Below are positions 487-5,602 of a stretch of 29,678 nt of DNA, one piece after another. The stretch is from a virus (lineage: Duplodnaviria; Caudoviricetes). The position numbers were made by a program, and so were the translations under genes. Location: positions 1 to 29,678 of IMG/VR virus record IMGVR_UViG_3300037780_000065; one strand, given 5' to 3'. Numbering within the stretch: the first letter of the stretch is position 1; every line of letters starts with the position of its first letter. The notes under the pieces are model-generated. The model saw nothing but the letters and a program-made list of their open reading frames with translations. It made no database searches and was not told the DNA's origin.

Positions 487-578
487 GCACAACGCTTGGG
501 TTCACACGGTCGCCGCGTGTGACCTTGACCAAACCAAACAGCGAGACCGGCGACTCGTTGTGCAATCCATTGTTAGTC
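487..578 (-). other. attC site (92 bp)
   Basis: GCACAAC ... GGGTTCACAC / TCGCCG-CGGCGA / GTTGTGCAATCC ... GTTAGTC, with an extra C in the right arm. Confidence 0.85.
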
Positions 579-881
579 ATGCCTGTCGATTGGTCGAAGT
601 ATCCCGATGATTGGAACGAAACGGCAAACCGCATCAAAGATGAGGCAGGCTGGAAGTGTGAGAAGTGCGGCAAGCAGTGCAGATTTCCGGGCGAAGAATT
701 TGACACGCACAAAAGGACGTTGACCGTTGCCCACATCAACCACGTCGAAATGGATTGCAGCGATGAAAACCTCGTTGCGTTGTGTCCAGCGTGCCATTTG
801 GAATACGACGGCTACCGCAAAGCGATGCAGCGGCTAGCCAAGAAGCGAATCAAGTCAGTTGCCGATAACGTGTTGTTTTAG
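579..881 (+). CDS. Cassette 2: HNH endonuclease-like protein
   Basis: CEKCG...LTVAHINH...NLVALCPACH; ATG directly after the R box (ORF track start 519 lies inside the attC). Confidence 0.8.
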   Translation: MPVDWSKYPDDWNETANRIKDEAGWKCEKCGKQCRFPGEEFDTHKRTLTVAHINHVEMDCSDENLVALCPACHLEYDGYRKAMQRLAKKRIKSVADNVLF

Positions 882-885
882 GTCT

Positions 886-994
886 GACGAACGGTCGTGA
901 TCACCGGCGTGCGAACAACGAAAGAATAAGGAGCGAATGCGATATGACTAAAAACACAGGACCGGCCACGTCCGGTGCATCATCGTTGTTGGGC
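886..994 (-). other. attC site (109 bp)
   Basis: GACGAAC ... TGATCACCGGCGTG pairs with CACG(T)CCGGTG(C)ATCA ... GTTGGGC; two extrahelical bases. Confidence 0.9.
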
Positions 995-1189
995 TGCGGC
1001 ACGGATAGTGCAGCTTCCGCCGGTGATCACGACCGTTGGGCTGACGCAATGCGAGAGCTATTTGAGACGCATGACCGAGCAATGAAAGGTGATTTCGAAT
1101 CAGTCGAAGACATCTATTGCCTGTTGCTCTACAAGGTTTCGTGTCTCAAAAGATTGAGCGAAGCAAAACAGATCACCGAAGGACGGTGA
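944..1189 (+). CDS. Cassette 3: hypothetical protein starting inside the attC loop
   Basis: AAGGAG at 928..933, ATG at 944; ORF fills the cassette. Confidence 0.7.
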   Translation: MTKNTGPATSGASSLLGCGTDSAASAGDHDRWADAMRELFETHDRAMKGDFESVEDIYCLLLYKVSCLKRLSEAKQITEGR

Positions 1190-1200
1190 TACGGCCGTCA

Positions 1201-1307
1201 GCCCAACGATGCGAATTTCCGGCAAGAACAAAGCCAAAAAGGAACGAACTTGTGAGTGACAGCAGAAAAACCAGCCCGGCCTTGCCGGAACATTCGTCTT
1301 GTTCTAC
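1201..1307 (-). other. attC site (107 bp)
   Basis: GCCCAAC ... GAATTTCCGGCAAG pairs with CTTGCCGGAA(C)ATTC ... GTTCTAC. Confidence 0.9.
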
Positions 1308-1641
1308 GGCGTCACGGAAGACGTCGGGTGCCGGGAATTCGCATCGTTCCACGGACGAGCTTTTGCCCTGCCCGTTTTGCGGGAGCGGAGGGAACCTCAT
1401 AAATGACTTATCGCACTTCCCGATCCAGTTCTGTGTGCTGTGCGAGAAACCGTCTTGTGCGACCGAAGGCCCCGTAAAGGAAACACGGTCCAATGCCGTC
1501 AAGGCTTGGAACACTAGGGCAGGGCAAGTTGCCGACCAGGGGCTAGCTTATGGGCTTGCGAAGGCAGTAGGCAGGTTCACAGACATGACACCCGAGCAAG
1601 TTCTGAAACTCGCAAAAGCTTGCAGCCCCGCAGGCGAATAG
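1252..1641 (+). CDS. Cassette 4: Lar-family restriction alleviation-like zinc protein
   Basis: LLPCPFCG...C..C...EGP...A..AWNTRA; GTG at 1252 in the attC loop after AAGGAA. Confidence 0.75.
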   Translation: MSDSRKTSPALPEHSSCSTASRKTSGAGNSHRSTDELLPCPFCGSGGNLINDLSHFPIQFCVLCEKPSCATEGPVKETRSNAVKAWNTRAGQVADQGLAYGLAKAVGRFTDMTPEQVLKLAKACSPAGE

Positions 1642-1682
1642 CAACAAAACGCAGGACACTTAGGGAAAGTGTCACGACGTCC

Positions 1683-1804
1683 GTGGAACGTTGAACTTAT
1701 CCTGCATTGCCATTCGTGGCGTGCTTTGAGTTGACCAACTTTCCAATTCACACGATCCTGACTTGTCGAGCCGCCGCAATGTCAGGATCAAGTTTTTGTT
1801 GTGC
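1683..1804 (-). other. attC site (122 bp)
   Basis: GTGGAAC ... AACTTATCCTGCATTGC pairs with GCAATG(T)CAGGAT(C)AAGTT ... GTTGTGC. Confidence 0.9.
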
Positions 1805-1822
1805 GGTTCTATCGAGAAAGCT

Positions 1823-2023
1823 ATGAACGAAGAACGAATGTTGAAGTGGTTTGAATACGCTCACCTCCCGGAGCATTTGCAGGCAGTGTCGAGGCCATTC
1901 GGTGAACTGGCCGCGAAAGTTTGCGAAGTCATCGAAGGCGGGCCAGAGCGAACCGTTGCGTTGCGGAAATTGTTGGAGTCGAAAGACGCCGCCGTGCGTG
2001 CCAAACTCAACCCAGGCGGCTAA
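1823..2023 (+). CDS. Cassette 5 gene A: second allele of 82..282
   Basis: 62 of 66 amino acids identical to 82..282. Confidence 0.75.
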   Translation: MNEERMLKWFEYAHLPEHLQAVSRPFGELAAKVCEVIEGGPERTVALRKLLESKDAAVRAKLNPGG

Positions 2024-2025
2024 TC

Positions 2026-2223
2026 GTGCGTGCAATTATCGAGCGGGTCACGTGTGACGACTGCGGCGAGATTCGCCACTTCGAGAAATTCGACATGGCC
2101 GGAATGACCGCAAGGACCGAACCGCTAACGGACTGGTTGCGACAGTACGGGTGGACAGTCCAAGAGAACGGCAATCGTCGTATCGACACGTGCCCCGCTT
2201 GCGTTGCTAGGAAGCGTGACTGA
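2026..2223 (+). CDS. Cassette 5 gene B: copy of the 285..482 zinc-binding protein
   Basis: Three nucleotide differences from 285..482 by manual comparison. Confidence 0.75.
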   Translation: MRAIIERVTCDDCGEIRHFEKFDMAGMTARTEPLTDWLRQYGWTVQENGNRRIDTCPACVARKRD

Positions 2224-2227
2224 ATCC

Positions 2228-2331
2228 GCACAACGTTCGGGATCTCCGGCATGGAACAACCAAGGAAACGAATCTATGAGTAACGCACAAGAAATCCAGA
2301 CCGGCCATGCCGGAGCATCCCGTTGTTCTGC
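2228..2331 (-). other. attC site (104 bp)
   Basis: GCACAAC ... GGGATCTCCGGCATGG pairs with CCATGCCGGAG(C)ATCCC ... GTTCTGC. Confidence 0.9.
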
Positions 2332-2569
2332 TGCGACCAAACAGTCGCAGCTAGACGCCGGGGATACCGAACGTTCTGCTGACGCCCTGCGGGGTATCGT
2401 CAAGCAATTGGATCGCCTTGAAGAGCAAGTGCCCTTGATCATTGGCATGTTTGTGTTTCGCTTTTTCGAGAAAAAGGCATTCCACAATGGTCAAATGGCA
2501 ATGCTCCGGGCGATACGGGATCTAATTGCTTGGGAGATACGCCGCATGGAAGGGAAAGATGATGATTGA
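2276..2569 (+). CDS. Cassette 6: hypothetical protein starting inside the attC loop
   Basis: AAGGAAA upstream and ATG at 2276, both in the loop. Confidence 0.7.
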   Translation: MSNAQEIQTGHAGASRCSAATKQSQLDAGDTERSADALRGIVKQLDRLEEQVPLIIGMFVFRFFEKKAFHNGQMAMLRAIRDLIAWEIRRMEGKDDD

Positions 2570-2590
2570 TGGACAATCATTCCGTCGTCA

Positions 2591-2716
2591 GCAGAACGCT
2601 GGCATTCTCCTGTCGGCACCTCCCAAGCAATCCCAACCAAAAGGAATCCATGACATGACCCAACCAGCAAGCCAACCCGAAGCAACCGCCGATCAGGAGC
2701 AATCGCCTTGTTCTGC
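2591..2716 (-). other. attC site (126 bp)
   Basis: GCAGAAC ... ATTCTCCTGTCGGC pairs with GCCGA(T)CAGGAG(C)AAT ... GTTCTGC. Confidence 0.9.
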
Positions 2717-2984
2717 GACTTTTCCAAACCCTCTAATGATCCAGATGGGCGAGGGCAAATTGTTGTGCTCGAAGTTCTGGGACCACGCCGATTCTGACGG
2801 CGGGATCATTATTTCAGACACTGGTGAACGACATGAGATCGGCAGTGATGCCAATCTACCAGCGGAGGAAAACCACATGCCAAAGACCGGCGAGGTGTTT
2901 TTGCGATTCGGGTGCAAGGCAAGTGCCGAGTCGTTGCGAGACGTAATTAATGAAGTGATTTCCGAATGGCCTTCAAGTTCGTAG
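2655..2984 (+). CDS. Cassette 7: hypothetical protein starting inside the attC loop
   Basis: AAGGAA at 2641, ATG at 2655; TAG stop lies in the next R box GTAGAAC. Confidence 0.7.
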   Translation: MTQPASQPEATADQEQSPCSATFPNPLMIQMGEGKLLCSKFWDHADSDGGIIISDTGERHEIGSDANLPAEENHMPKTGEVFLRFGCKASAESLRDVINEVISEWPSSS

Positions 2985-3102
2985 AACGCTGAACTTATCC
3001 TGCATTGCCATTCGTGGCGTGCTTTGAGTTGACCAACTTTCCAATCCAAACGATCCCGACTTGTCGAGCCGCCGCAATGTCAGGATCAAGTTTTTGTTGT
3101 GC
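2981..3102 (-). other. attC site (122 bp), near-identical to 1683..1804
   Basis: Same arms and loop with a few substitutions; GTAGAAC ... GTTGTGC. Confidence 0.9.
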
Positions 3103-3119
3103 GGTTCTTGGAGAAAATC

Positions 3120-3653
3120 ATGGGTCGAGAAATAAGAATGGTCCCGCCTAATTGGGATCATCCCAAGGGGATGCGAATGAATGGCCGGATAGATTACCAA
3201 CCGATGTTCGATCAGCGTTTCGAGGATGCGGCAGAGGAGTGGAAGCAAGAATTTGCTAAGTGGCAAGCGGGCGAGCGTCCCAGTTACTACACCAAAAAAG
3301 AGGGAGAACCGGAGCCGGAGTTTTGGGAGTACCACGGCGGACCACCAGATCGCGATTACTACCGACCGTGGAAGGACGAAGAGGCGACGTGGTATCAGGT
3401 GTGGCAAACCGTCAGCGAAGGCTCGCCAGTCTCCCCACCATTCGAGACCAAAGAGGAGTTGATCGAATACCTAGTCGCTAACGGGGACTATTGGGATCAG
3501 GCGAGACGCGACGAAGGCAGAACGACCGTGATGGATTGCCAACCGTGGTCGCGAAAAGCAGCGGAGGCGTTTGTCAACGGCCCTGGATGGGCACCGTCGA
3601 TGGTTGTCGACAACAGCGGCGTGCGATCGGGCGTCGAATCGCTCGCGGACTGA
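3120..3653 (+). CDS. Cassette 8: phage-type hypothetical protein (Trp/Pro/acidic-rich)
   Basis: GGAG at 3110, ATG at 3120; MGREIRMVPPNWDHP...YQVWQTVSEGSPVSPPF. Confidence 0.8.
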   Translation: MGREIRMVPPNWDHPKGMRMNGRIDYQPMFDQRFEDAAEEWKQEFAKWQAGERPSYYTKKEGEPEPEFWEYHGGPPDRDYYRPWKDEEATWYQVWQTVSEGSPVSPPFETKEELIEYLVANGDYWDQARRDEGRTTVMDCQPWSRKAAEAFVNGPGWAPSMVVDNSGVRSGVESLAD

Positions 3654-3657
3654 ATCC

Positions 3658-3785
3658 GCACAACGTCGCACTTCTCCCGCTTCGCATTAAACCGATCAAC
3701 CTCAAAGGATTCACTCAGATGACAGATCAAACCAACTTCAGCGAACCAACCAGTGGCGAAGTCGGCGAGCAAGTGCTTGTTATGC
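3658..3785 (-). other. attC site (128 bp)
   Basis: GCACAAC ... GCACTTCTCCCGCTTCGC pairs with GCGAAG(T)CGG(C)GAG(C)AAGTGC ... GTTATGC. Confidence 0.9.
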
Positions 3786-4141
3786 CAGCGTGGCGTTGCT
3801 TCCACTGCGGGTTTAAGACAAGTGACGAAAAGGAAGCCCAAGCACACTTCGGAGACGACTCAGACGATCCAGCTTTGTGCGTCTTCTGGACTTCGCTCGA
3901 TGATGCCGAGCGGGCTCACGAATATCAACAACTGACGATGGAGTTAAACGCGACACGCGAGGACGTTTTCCGTTTGAATGCGGAAATTGAAATGGAAAGC
4001 TCCGAAGGAATGAGGATGTTTCGCGAACTTGAATCTCGTATGTACCAAGAACTTCGGCGTGCCGAAGAGGATGGGTATGCCCGAGGCTTGCGAGATGCTC
4101 AAAAGCATCCCGAAGAAATCGGGCTGTGCCGCTTGGCATAA
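3719..4141 (+). CDS. Cassette 9: zinc-finger (CxxC...H) plus coiled-coil hypothetical protein, starting inside the attC loop
   Basis: AAGGA upstream, ATG at 3719; WRCFHCG...AQAHFG; TAA stop lies within GCATAAC. Confidence 0.75.
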   Translation: MTDQTNFSEPTSGEVGEQVLVMPAWRCFHCGFKTSDEKEAQAHFGDDSDDPALCVFWTSLDDAERAHEYQQLTMELNATREDVFRLNAEIEMESSEGMRMFRELESRMYQELRRAEEDGYARGLRDAQKHPEEIGLCRLA

Positions 4142-4191
4142 CGAGTAATTACCCGGTGAAAGCGCCGCTCAATTGTCTTGCGCCGGATAAT
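4136..4191 (-). other. Putative attI site between the last cassette and the intI stop codon
   Basis: R box GTTATGC on the minus strand (4136..4142) with no partner R box; imperfect inverted repeat AATTACCCGG...CCGGATAATT. Confidence 0.6.
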
Positions 4192-5190
4192 TCAGGCGGC
4201 TAGGATCGCATCAATAGGGCTGTCCTGGCCGCTGATTGCAATTTCGTCTTCGAAGATGTAATCGAAAGTCTGCTCGATGCTGTTGTGACCGAGGATTACC
4301 TGCAATCGCTCAATGTCCTTGGTTCGCCGGTAAAAATGCGTGGCACCAGCTCGCCGCATGTCGTGCGGGGTGATTCGCCGGCGGACTCCGGATGATCGCA
4401 CGGCCGCGGTGAATCGCTTGCGGAATGCGTCGTCGTTGATGTGCCAGCGTTTTTTCGGGGCTGTTGGATCGCGGGGATCGGCAGACAACGAGCGGCTAGG
4501 GAATAGCCAGAACCAGTCTATCAGCAGCGGTGCGGTTGGTGACTTGGTGGCGAAGCTCTTGGGGACCGGGACGCCGGGGTTGCCGCATTGCTGGTCGCGT
4601 CGATGGAAGTGCTCGACGTTTCGGATTTGTTGGTGGATCCGCTGATGGAGTGATTCGGGCAGCGGCACGATGCGAAAGTGATCGTGTTTGCAATCGGCGA
4701 TTTCGGCTTGCTGGAAGTCGAAGTTGAGATCCTTGATTCGCAGGTTGAGGATGTCGTTCAACCGGCTCATGCAACCGAACATCATCAGGGCAATCAGTTG
4801 ATCGTGCGGCGAGAGAGCCTGGATGACTTGCGTGATCTGATTCGCACTGATGTTTCGCCGCCGTTGACGGGTCGGTTGTTTGAGTCGCAGCGGGTCGGTT
4901 TCACGTTGCTCGAGCGTGCGGTGCAAGACTCGCTCGAACAGAAACCGAATAGCCGACATGGCTTGGTTGACCGTTCGCGGCGACTGGTTGCGGTCGTTGG
5001 CCAGGACGTTTCGAAAGTGATAGACATCATCCTCGGTGATCTGGTCTCGCGTGATTCGGTTGCCGCGGTGGCGGCGTGTTGTGTTGACGAAATCCATCAC
5101 GACCGGCCAATACGCATCGAACGTTGAGTCTTTGTTTCCGGCTTGCTTGATTGCGGCGCGAAGCTCTCTTCGCAGTGTGGCTTGTGACAT
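4192..5190 (-). CDS. intI: Integron integrase (IntI-family tyrosine recombinase)
   Basis: N-terminal SPRTVNQAMSAIRFLFERVL; catalytic R (SRL..ILNLRIKDL), K, HDMR, LGH...Y; IntI-specific insert VPKSFATKSPTA..WFWLFPSRSLSADPR..KRWH; GGGGGTG RBS. Confidence 0.92.
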   Translation of the reverse strand: MSQATLRRELRAAIKQAGNKDSTFDAYWPVVMDFVNTTRRHRGNRITRDQITEDDVYHFRNVLANDRNQSPRTVNQAMSAIRFLFERVLHRTLEQRETDPLRLKQPTRQRRRNISANQITQVIQALSPHDQLIALMMFGCMSRLNDILNLRIKDLNFDFQQAEIADCKHDHFRIVPLPESLHQRIHQQIRNVEHFHRRDQQCGNPGVPVPKSFATKSPTAPLLIDWFWLFPSRSLSADPRDPTAPKKRWHINDDAFRKRFTAAVRSSGVRRRITPHDMRRAGATHFYRRTKDIERLQVILGHNSIEQTFDYIFEDEIAISGQDSPIDAILAA

Positions 5191-5256: not shown

Positions 5257-5291
5257 TTTGCGTTTTGGGCGATGGTGCTATGATTTCGATA
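5257..5291 (+). promoter_or_regulatory. Possible extended -10 promoter giving a leaderless transcript of the DUF1064 gene, divergent from intI
   Basis: TGcTATGAT at 5276..5284, ATG at 5291, no Shine-Dalgarno; weak -35 TTGCGT near 5258. Confidence 0.35.
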
Positions 5292-5602
5292 TGAGATCGC
5301 ACAAGTACAACGCCAAGCCGACTGTTCTCGATGGCATTCGTTTTGACTCTCAAGCCGAGGGCCGATACTACAGTCAGCTCAAGCTTCGCCAGAAGGCTGG
5401 CGAGGTTGTGCAGTTCTTGCGTCAGGTGCCGTTTCATCTTCCCGGCAAGACCAAGCTGGTGGTCGATTTCATGGAGTTCCATGCAGACGGCACAACTCAT
5501 TTTGTGGATGTCAAAGGCATGGAAACCGAAGCGTTCAAAATCAAACGCCGGCAGGTCGAGCAGCTTTATGCACCAATCAAAATCGAGACGGTGAAAGCAT
5601 GA
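5291..5602 (+). CDS. DUF1064-family PD-(D/E)xK endonuclease-like phage protein
   Basis: HKYNAKPTVLDGIRFDSQAEGRYY...RQVPF...VDF...DVKG. Confidence 0.85.
   Translation: MRSHKYNAKPTVLDGIRFDSQAEGRYYSQLKLRQKAGEVVQFLRQVPFHLPGKTKLVVDFMEFHADGTTHFVDVKGMETEAFKIKRRQVEQLYAPIKIETVKA

Follow-up and report, generated by a model that had tools for sequence, protein, structure and literature searches.

An extra, bulge-free arm complementary to the circle junction in attC-type cassettes of a phage record

The cassette array and its integrase

The window analysed here is a whole virus record of 29,678 nt (~29.7 kb), with a tool-estimated completeness of 36%. Its phage-type matches (lambda-type portal, protease/capsid) all score under their curated cut-offs. 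At 493-4141, the + strand carries an array of eight whole attC-type cassettes, each delimited by an AA|C crossover, with boundaries after 492, 891, 1206, 1688, 2233, 2596, 2986, 3663 and 4141; a ninth cassette is truncated by the start of the window. On this strand the eight cassettes lie upstream of an integrase gene (4192-5190, - strand), whose 3' end adjoins the array and which encodes a 332 aa integron-integrase-like tyrosine recombinase; a DUF1064 gene (5258-5602) adjoins the integrase. A weak, sub-cut-off HNH match lies at 579-881, within a cassette. The intervals 1-492, 1689-2233 and 2987-3663 form a set in which one cassette is present in two copies (91% over 300 nt), and the third has the common 120-nt head and 19-nt tail with different cargo.

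Searched against nine families, the integrase matches TIGR02249 best (194.2 bits, under the cut-off of 265), and its best solved relative in a PDB search is IntI4 (2a3v, E 2.5e-30). Its alignment to 2a3v and to proteins named integron integrase has no large gap, and it has the IntI-specific insertion between patches II and III, at what we take to be the position of that insertion. The KGxK-type hairpin differs, and reads KHDH here. The protein belongs to a Planctomycetota-linked clade (40-65% identity) in which KHDHFR replaces the KGxKxR-type motif of canonical IntIs, and judging from these residues bulge recognition may be different. An alignment-based search gives 24 genome loci, with close relatives in Planctomycetota, and seven weak loci in viral contigs; as a single query against viral contigs the integrase finds no relatives. 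The host is probably a planctomycete, since the closest integrase relatives sit in Planctomycetota genomes.

The likely attI is at 4135-4160 (+), with AA|C at 4141/4142, an assignment based on the sequence and on a joint from 1207 to 4146 in related contigs (X4). We see no GTT partner arm there, and its right side is similar to the left arms of the cassettes. Integrase, array and attI thus assigned lie next to one another, as in a complete integron. By the published rule the + strand is the bottom strand, because the crossover falls in the AAC of R' and the extra bases are on the opposite arm. The cassette genes are therefore reversed relative to those of bacterial cassettes, and their ORFs point towards attI, which departs from the top-strand, Pc-read arrangement of a complete integron. 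Several of the genes in 493-4141 begin within the attC loop, and all are on the bottom strand.

Anatomy of the cassettes with an extra arm

In three of the eight whole cassettes, a hairpin and an extra arm, which we name C, follow the inner attC arm. The order of elements is left arm A, segment 'a', inner arm B, hairpin 1, arm C, cargo, hairpin 2 and tail. In the ordinary attC fold, the cassette-start arm A pairs with B, which ends in GTT, such that the spacer is unpaired and one or two extra bases stand on B. Arm C pairs with A as well, without bulges, and the pairing runs on into the last 11 bases of its own cassette. The first-pass annotation had described these arms as inverted copies of the circle junction, and the matches hold at exactly the lengths and scores it gave.

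The first C cassette (892-1206, crossovers AA|C after 891 and 1206) has an ORF at 944-1189 without a Pfam family. AAC plus arm A, the bottom-strand R'/L' side, occupies 890-909, followed by segment 'a' (911-921), the predicted partner of the GTT box of B in the alternative fold. Arm B (967-998) has its GTT at 988, with an extrahelical C and T on the + strand, and hairpin 1 (993-1014), with GGA in its loop, overlaps the B tail. Arm C (1018-1046, GTT at 1035) is the reverse complement, 29/29, of 1196-1206 joined to 892-909. Hairpin 2 (1172-1190, AAGGA loop) precedes the cassette tail (R', 1196-1206), which pairs with the 3' part of C. The second C cassette (1207-1688) encodes a Lar restriction-alleviation domain (PF14354, above cut-off) in the ORF 1252-1641. 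Its arm A is at 1207-1224, with segment 'a' at about 1224-1231; arm B (1282-1309, GTT at 1301) has one extrahelical C, and hairpin 1 (1307-1326) has an ACGGAA hexaloop. Arm C (1329-1357, GTT at 1346) matches 1678-1688 plus 1207-1224 at 28/29 positions, the single deviation being a G.T on the + strand; hairpin 2 (1655-1673) has an AGGGA loop and the tail is 1678-1688. The third (2234-2596, ORF 2276-2569 without a Pfam family) has arm A at 2234-2250, segment 'a' at about 2253-2260, and arm B at 2305-2333 (GTT at 2325, one extrahelical C). Hairpin 1 (2330-2351) has 8 bp and a loop without GGA. Arm C (2357-2384, GTT at 2373) matches 2586-2596 plus 2234-2250 at 26/28 positions, with one G.T and one G.A on the + strand, and it is followed by hairpin 2 (2562-2580, ATGGA loop) and the tail (2586-2596). 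All of these elements are on the + strand.

When each cassette interior was dinucleotide-shuffled 300 times, ungapped matching to a 29-nt junction query never scored above 17, 20 and 18, compared with 29, 28 and 26 in the actual sequences. In the remaining five of the eight whole cassettes such a copy is absent (scores of 9-12 at best, versus 22-29), and their circle folds contain the ordinary bulged arm only. The GTTs of the three copies lie 47, 45 and 48 nt past those of the inner arms, within the spacing previously noted. The normal inner arm B also complements the end of its own cassette, over 8 bp in 4/6 C sites, as attC arms do, and complementarity to the junction alone is therefore not special. 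What sets these sites apart is that they have a second arm, free of bulges. This arm does not simply repeat B: C also matches the T in the GTC motif of the tail, which B leaves unpaired, and so copies the junction strand itself. Non-C cassettes of seven other loci (L040, L043, L050, L063, L109, L125 and L138) likewise end in GTC-N5-AAC versus GTT-N5-GC in arm B, so that on the R' side a T is conserved and unpaired there too.

The A:B fold has the features of an attC site: AAC and GTT boxes, an AA|C crossover and, in all six C sites known to us (see below), an imperfect hairpin with an unpaired central spacer and extrahelical bases on the R''-L'' arm. It has in common with IntI1/attC-aadA7 and the V. 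cholerae VCR the AAC...GTT R box and the bottom-strand AA|C crossover, the unpaired central spacer with one or two extrahelical bases on the 3' arm, and an inner arm that matches the cassette's own end, as those sites are described in PMC5027507 and PMC2727003. It differs from the sites described there in the second, bulge-free arm outside the site, in helices predicted to sequester the normal arm, in genes that lie on the bottom strand and often start inside the site, and in a first extrahelical bottom-strand base on B that is C and not G, a change reported to cost at most 2.7-fold in integration (PMC2727003). Taken as the site, the A:C fold lacks attC character, with zero bulges and 0-2 mismatches. 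That C is a canonical right arm with a misplaced crossover is ruled out: the bulges are on B, and repeats and contig branches place AA|C. The first-pass annotation had taken the junction match as support for the predicted crossovers; they are separately backed by repeats within the window and by related-phage contigs, which branch or end loosely no more than 3 nt from them (494, 1205, 1207, 1689, 2236).

Occurrence, variation and exchange of cargo

The same layout occurs, with different sequence, in three cassettes of two other viruses. The provirus L007/G003 has two adjacent C cassettes among seven A:B sites detected in one half, and L212/G404 has one. The element thus recurs in other viruses with matching changes, as the first-pass annotation had proposed to check. 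The six C sequences all differ, and each pairs over 27-30 bp (26/28 at worst), split into 11-12 bp on the tail side and 15-18 bp on the head side. The four deviations in the window family are two G.T and one G.A in the window and one G.T variant at 1020 in X4; 3/4 keep a G.T on the + strand, numbers too few for significance. The claim that the copies lie inside coding sequence stands for the window (ORFs 944-1189, 1252-1641 and 2276-2569) and fails for L212, where the copy is upstream of a likely ribosome-binding site and ATG; a coding location is therefore not a fixed feature. Being non-coding in L212, C cannot be kept for an encoded protein, and we rejected that explanation.

The arm is a rare add-on, found in 4/167 distinct matches to an A+B pattern (13-15 of 15 positions; three of the four are those of this window), where the best other match reaches 8 of 15. 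Of that set, 156/167 score as attC-like, with 4/10 of the scored positions forced by the pattern. Pattern scans of IMG/VR (four complete, one of 56/64 parts and one of 7/64, the last two yielding no case) give L007/G003 and L212/G404 as the only true cases; one complete scan, with 26 stretches, refinds the three known cases and none new. A metagenome scan (15/64 parts) has no C case among 124 loci, 44 of them short-flanked such that C arms may be cut off. The A-B-C layout is absent from the five pattern matches in 401 genomes of the class of G001, and from the 24 genome and seven viral-contig loci of integrase relatives. A DNA search of 401 genomes of the phylum returns no match, GenBank phages a single 53-base match, and Rfam no meaningful match. 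Just three viruses supply the six cases, which are probably related by descent, and most of the controls used below are unrelated cassettes from bacteria; the contrasts therefore make the cases look more independent than they are.

Several observations concern the other two viruses. The complete provirus G003 has no integrase match, despite its C cassettes. In L212, 2054-2239 is a stub like the N-terminus of the integrase clade described above (34 columns, E 2e-5), its 5' end adjoining the array in an arrangement opposite to that of the window. Lar-like cargo (LLPCPFCG) stands behind a C-bearing head in the window (1252-1641), and behind ordinary heads in L212 (1048-1388) and L007 (1310-1041, minus). 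In L007, 2200-2460, within the 701-nt C cassette (minus), and 4590-4290 are long intra-cassette stretches with low coding capacity and several hairpins.

Related contigs from seven of 12 listed runs, X4 and X7 among them, inform on movement, for the differences among the matches listed. In X4, the neighbours of C cassettes differ from those in the window: a variant copy of 890-1201 stands in a different context, one contig spans 2232-2597, and the joint from 1207 to 4146 sets a C cassette directly on the likely attI. Such changes of neighbour would fit, indirectly, recombination by an integron integrase. Another X4 contig covers exactly 1205-1356, with a joint from 1356 to 1633, and an X7 contig matches 961-1046, continues with 176 other letters and resumes at 1172-1203. 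From these two we conclude that the head through C and the tail, from about hairpin 2, are kept while the cargo is replaced. In the 1207 family other joints lie farther on, at 1374 and 1383, within the Lar-like start that is shared. One head without C stops at 1806, so breakage where the last arm ends is not confined to C cassettes. Contig depth in X4, which does not give copy number, is 740 for the 1205-1356 head versus ~220-430 summed over the integrase bins.

Because C cassettes have other neighbours in related contigs and cargo is replaced right after C, C appears from these sequences to be a maintained part of the site and not a relic. The first-pass annotation had allowed for a neutral scar, which is unlikely given that the module is retained while cargo changes. 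A fuller version makes C the trace of cassette building or renewal: a fold-back copy of the junction without a regulatory job, kept exact by repeated template switching, that marks the point where new cargo is joined. It would account for C copying the junction strand itself, including the T of GTC that B leaves unpaired, for the change of cargo directly after C in two families (1046 in X7, 1356 in X4), and for its rarity (two other viruses in eight scans). Copying would not, however, yield the pairing of segment 'a' with B, hairpin 1 and hairpin 2, all kept with different sequences. Hairpin 2 and the tail are inherited across cargo swaps and are therefore not newly written from C, and a non-C family likewise exchanges its cargo where the last arm ends (1806), the outcome expected if selection acted on nothing but the module. 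We consider this origin distinctly unlikely.

The AA|C junction is copied exactly on the minus strand, and this copy could also be an inverted recombination site that flips the segment with the ribosome-binding site and start codon, and a bulge-free hairpin is reported to lose part of its strand polarity (PMC2727003). We hold this to be highly improbable, with an identical orientation of C in all six cases and, in L212, a main start outside the segment. No strand-changing joint or circle junction occurs among those listed from contigs of the seven runs, a weak argument in that contigs drop rare variants.

Predicted folds and possible functions

With AAC forced onto either B or C, A:C is predicted to be more stable than A:B by 5.3-22.2 kcal/mol in linear and by 9.1-21.5 kcal/mol in circular DNA, and the energy gap is similar in RNA folds. 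Without C, the predicted probability of the attC fold as DNA is 0.97-0.99; with C present, the recombinogenic fold is no longer the favoured prediction. The competition with attC folding suggested by the first-pass annotation is thus borne out by predicted folds of linear as well as circular cassettes. Also as proposed there, C is predicted to pair with both cassette ends at once, and in DNA folds of the linear array (whole cassettes) the pairing probabilities are 0.63-1.0 for the head and 0.31-1.0 for the cassette's own tail.

In the A:C state, segment 'a' and hairpin 1 are predicted to hold B. The a:B helix has -7.4 to -10.2 kcal/mol in all six C sites and is equally strong in 3/98 non-C sites. 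Hairpin 1 is less specific, with 22/98 controls equally stable. Competing folds may be general in the array, given that a non-C head (493-575) also has an internal segment able to pair with arm A. In the heads of the set 1-492, 1689-2233 and 2987-3663, an internal segment at about 1753-1761 pairs exactly with arm B, the mirror image of this competition.

Both hairpins tend to present GGA. It is in the loop of hairpin 1 in 5/6 C sites versus 3/98 controls, and a hairpin with an ANGGA loop precedes the tail in the five C cassettes scored by script and, by folding, in that of L212, compared with 0/60 other cassettes with a findable end of their own and 0/6 non-C tails of the window. Two of 135 tails upstream of A:B sites have it, and these are probably the C tails themselves. 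The loops have the ANGGA(N) form of CsrA/RsmA sites, as judged by sequence and fold, and are candidates for such sites.

The interpretation that we prefer, tentatively and at a little under even confidence, is that C is a conditional off-switch on cassette movement, a brake acting in cis against its own attC. C would refold single-stranded DNA into a form that the integrase is predicted not to use, A:C being in effect a locally double-stranded form of the R'/L' arm, while segment 'a' and hairpin 1 would sequester the freed B. At the same time the 3' part of C would pair with the tail of its cassette, and this tail serves as R' arm for the attC that follows; with the cassette's own site and the next attC both occupied, both sites needed to excise the cassette alone would be blocked. 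As DNA is exposed 5' to 3', B would appear before C and A:B could form first, opening a short window for the integrase, which would explain continued cassette movement. A permanent lock is excluded, because C cassettes move. The hairpins with GGA loops are possible handles for a protein that sets the balance.

We favour this reading because of the pairing kept in six different sequences, the predicted energies and the a:B helix described above, and because of what is reported for integron integrases. Double-stranded attC is non-recombinogenic for IntI1 (PMC5027507). Deletion by attC x attC falls 130- to 490-fold when one of the two sites has lost its extrahelical bases, and this loss together with a paired central spacer drastically reduces attI x attC recombination (PMC2727003). 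Finally, attC sites with low folding probability have reduced or undetectable excision (PMC5371416). The low-folding attC sites of Vibrio sedentary integrons are alike in that competing folds reduce the recombinogenic hairpin and hence excision. There the competition is attributed to long terminal loops (PMC5371416); the competitor in the cassettes here is instead a dedicated element, exactly complementary to the circle junction, that varies with the ends of each cassette.

Against the brake, C cassettes are not frozen: they have other neighbours, one sits on the likely attI, and a head reaches a depth of 740. The circle, which has to re-integrate, is predicted to be locked at least as firmly as the linear form in 5/6 cases, so the brake must assume a kinetic window. 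The predicted folding probabilities of ~1e-4 to 1e-16 are mostly far under the 1e-5 to 1e-7 reported for natural low-folding sites (PMC5371416). The biochemical support all comes from IntI1 and VchIntIA, by analogy, and the integrase here scores under the cut-off and has a KHDH hairpin. Finally, a pure DNA brake leaves the GGA loops unexplained.

The same pairing can be read in the opposite sense, along the lines of the self-splint of the first-pass annotation, with the A:C duplex as the integrase substrate. It would be an attI-like double-stranded core that splints the cassette ends; a four-way junction centred on AA|C would be resolved to release a circle, which would then insert at a folded attC. 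Such a core is conceivable because C, with 11-12 bp, the crossover and 15-18 bp, is as long as the core site of a tyrosine recombinase, in which two arms flank a 6-8 bp spacer (PMC4792948), and because IntI1 can act on double-stranded pairs of partners at a low rate (PMC4792948). The likeness of the right side of the likely attI to A arms, the tail pairing predicted in the linear array, the divergence of the integrase, and the fact that C cassettes are mobile and common (3/8 here) also fit. Yet a single bulge-less partner costs IntI1 more than 100-fold (PMC2727003), double-stranded attC is inert with it (PMC5027507), and attI x attI recombination is 3-4 orders below reactions with attC (PMC4792948). 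A substrate of this kind would leave B superfluous, and B is well formed and bulged in 6/6 sites; in the complete provirus G003, moreover, C cassettes occur without any integrase match. On balance, we rate it as somewhat unlikely.

Alternatively, the A:C fold could act in the transcript, for which the + strand is the coding strand, closing the cassette RNA into one domain in which GGA hairpins bind host CsrA/RsmA and the translation or stability of its own or the next cassette is tuned. The hairpin evidence is what speaks for it: an ANGGA hairpin before the tail in all six C cassettes and 0/60 others, and the GGA of hairpin 1 (5/6 versus 3/98). High-affinity RsmE targets include AGGGA and AAGGA pentaloops and ANGGAX hexaloops (PMC4005645), which the loops here fit, and one Pirellulaceae genome has seven CsrA matches above cut-off. 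The likeness extends to the RsmZ and hcnA targets of CsrA/RsmA, with ANGGA(N) loops on short stems; unlike those described in PMC4005645, these candidate sites come two per cassette, with variable closing pairs, within a DNA recombination module. In most cases the stem of hairpin 2 is not closed by the C-G pair found in the RsmZ loops, the GGA loops may be shared by descent, and C is centred on a DNA crossover. Neither the window nor G003 nor G404, two of these three being fragments, has a csrA match, and there is no match in Rfam. The predicted accessibility of start regions with and without C is nearly unchanged (0.79/0.76, 0.55/0.65, 0.58/0.62, 0.46/0.46), and we rejected C as a switch of the cassette's own translation start. 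Regulation through the RNA thus seems unlikely to us.

A reading of longer odds, which we put forward as improbable, is that the C module is a reusable cassette chassis. C would close head and tail into a perfect duplex of integrase size, with a GGA hairpin 5' of each strand, and would hold the two cargo attachment points together, while a host GGA-binding protein would couple the building or release of cassettes to the state of the host.

We take the C-bearing site to be a real, maintained and new attC variant with a proposed function. In line with the first-pass annotation, which knew of no described attC feature of this kind, no extra complementary attC arm is described in the literature searched, where subscription journals are thinly covered. 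The phage integrons and CALINs of Qi et al. 2023 (PMC9892861) are similar in having attC-bounded phage cassettes with or without an integrase, and the text consulted describes no extra arm, bottom-strand genes or planctomycete phage.

Integron cassette shuffling is known to be controlled through the expression of the integrase, by host proteins, by the orientation of replication and by how readily the attC hairpin folds. If the brake is true, it would add a switch at the level of the single cassette, acting on its own mobility, changing with the cassette ends and parking the normal arm. The window is a good test case, since it combines three copies of the element with internal controls without C, an intact integrase of its own and a likely attI. 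Should C prove to be a substrate or a chassis, it would bear on the question of how cassettes arise, and the chassis in particular would provide a testable route to the origin of new cassettes.
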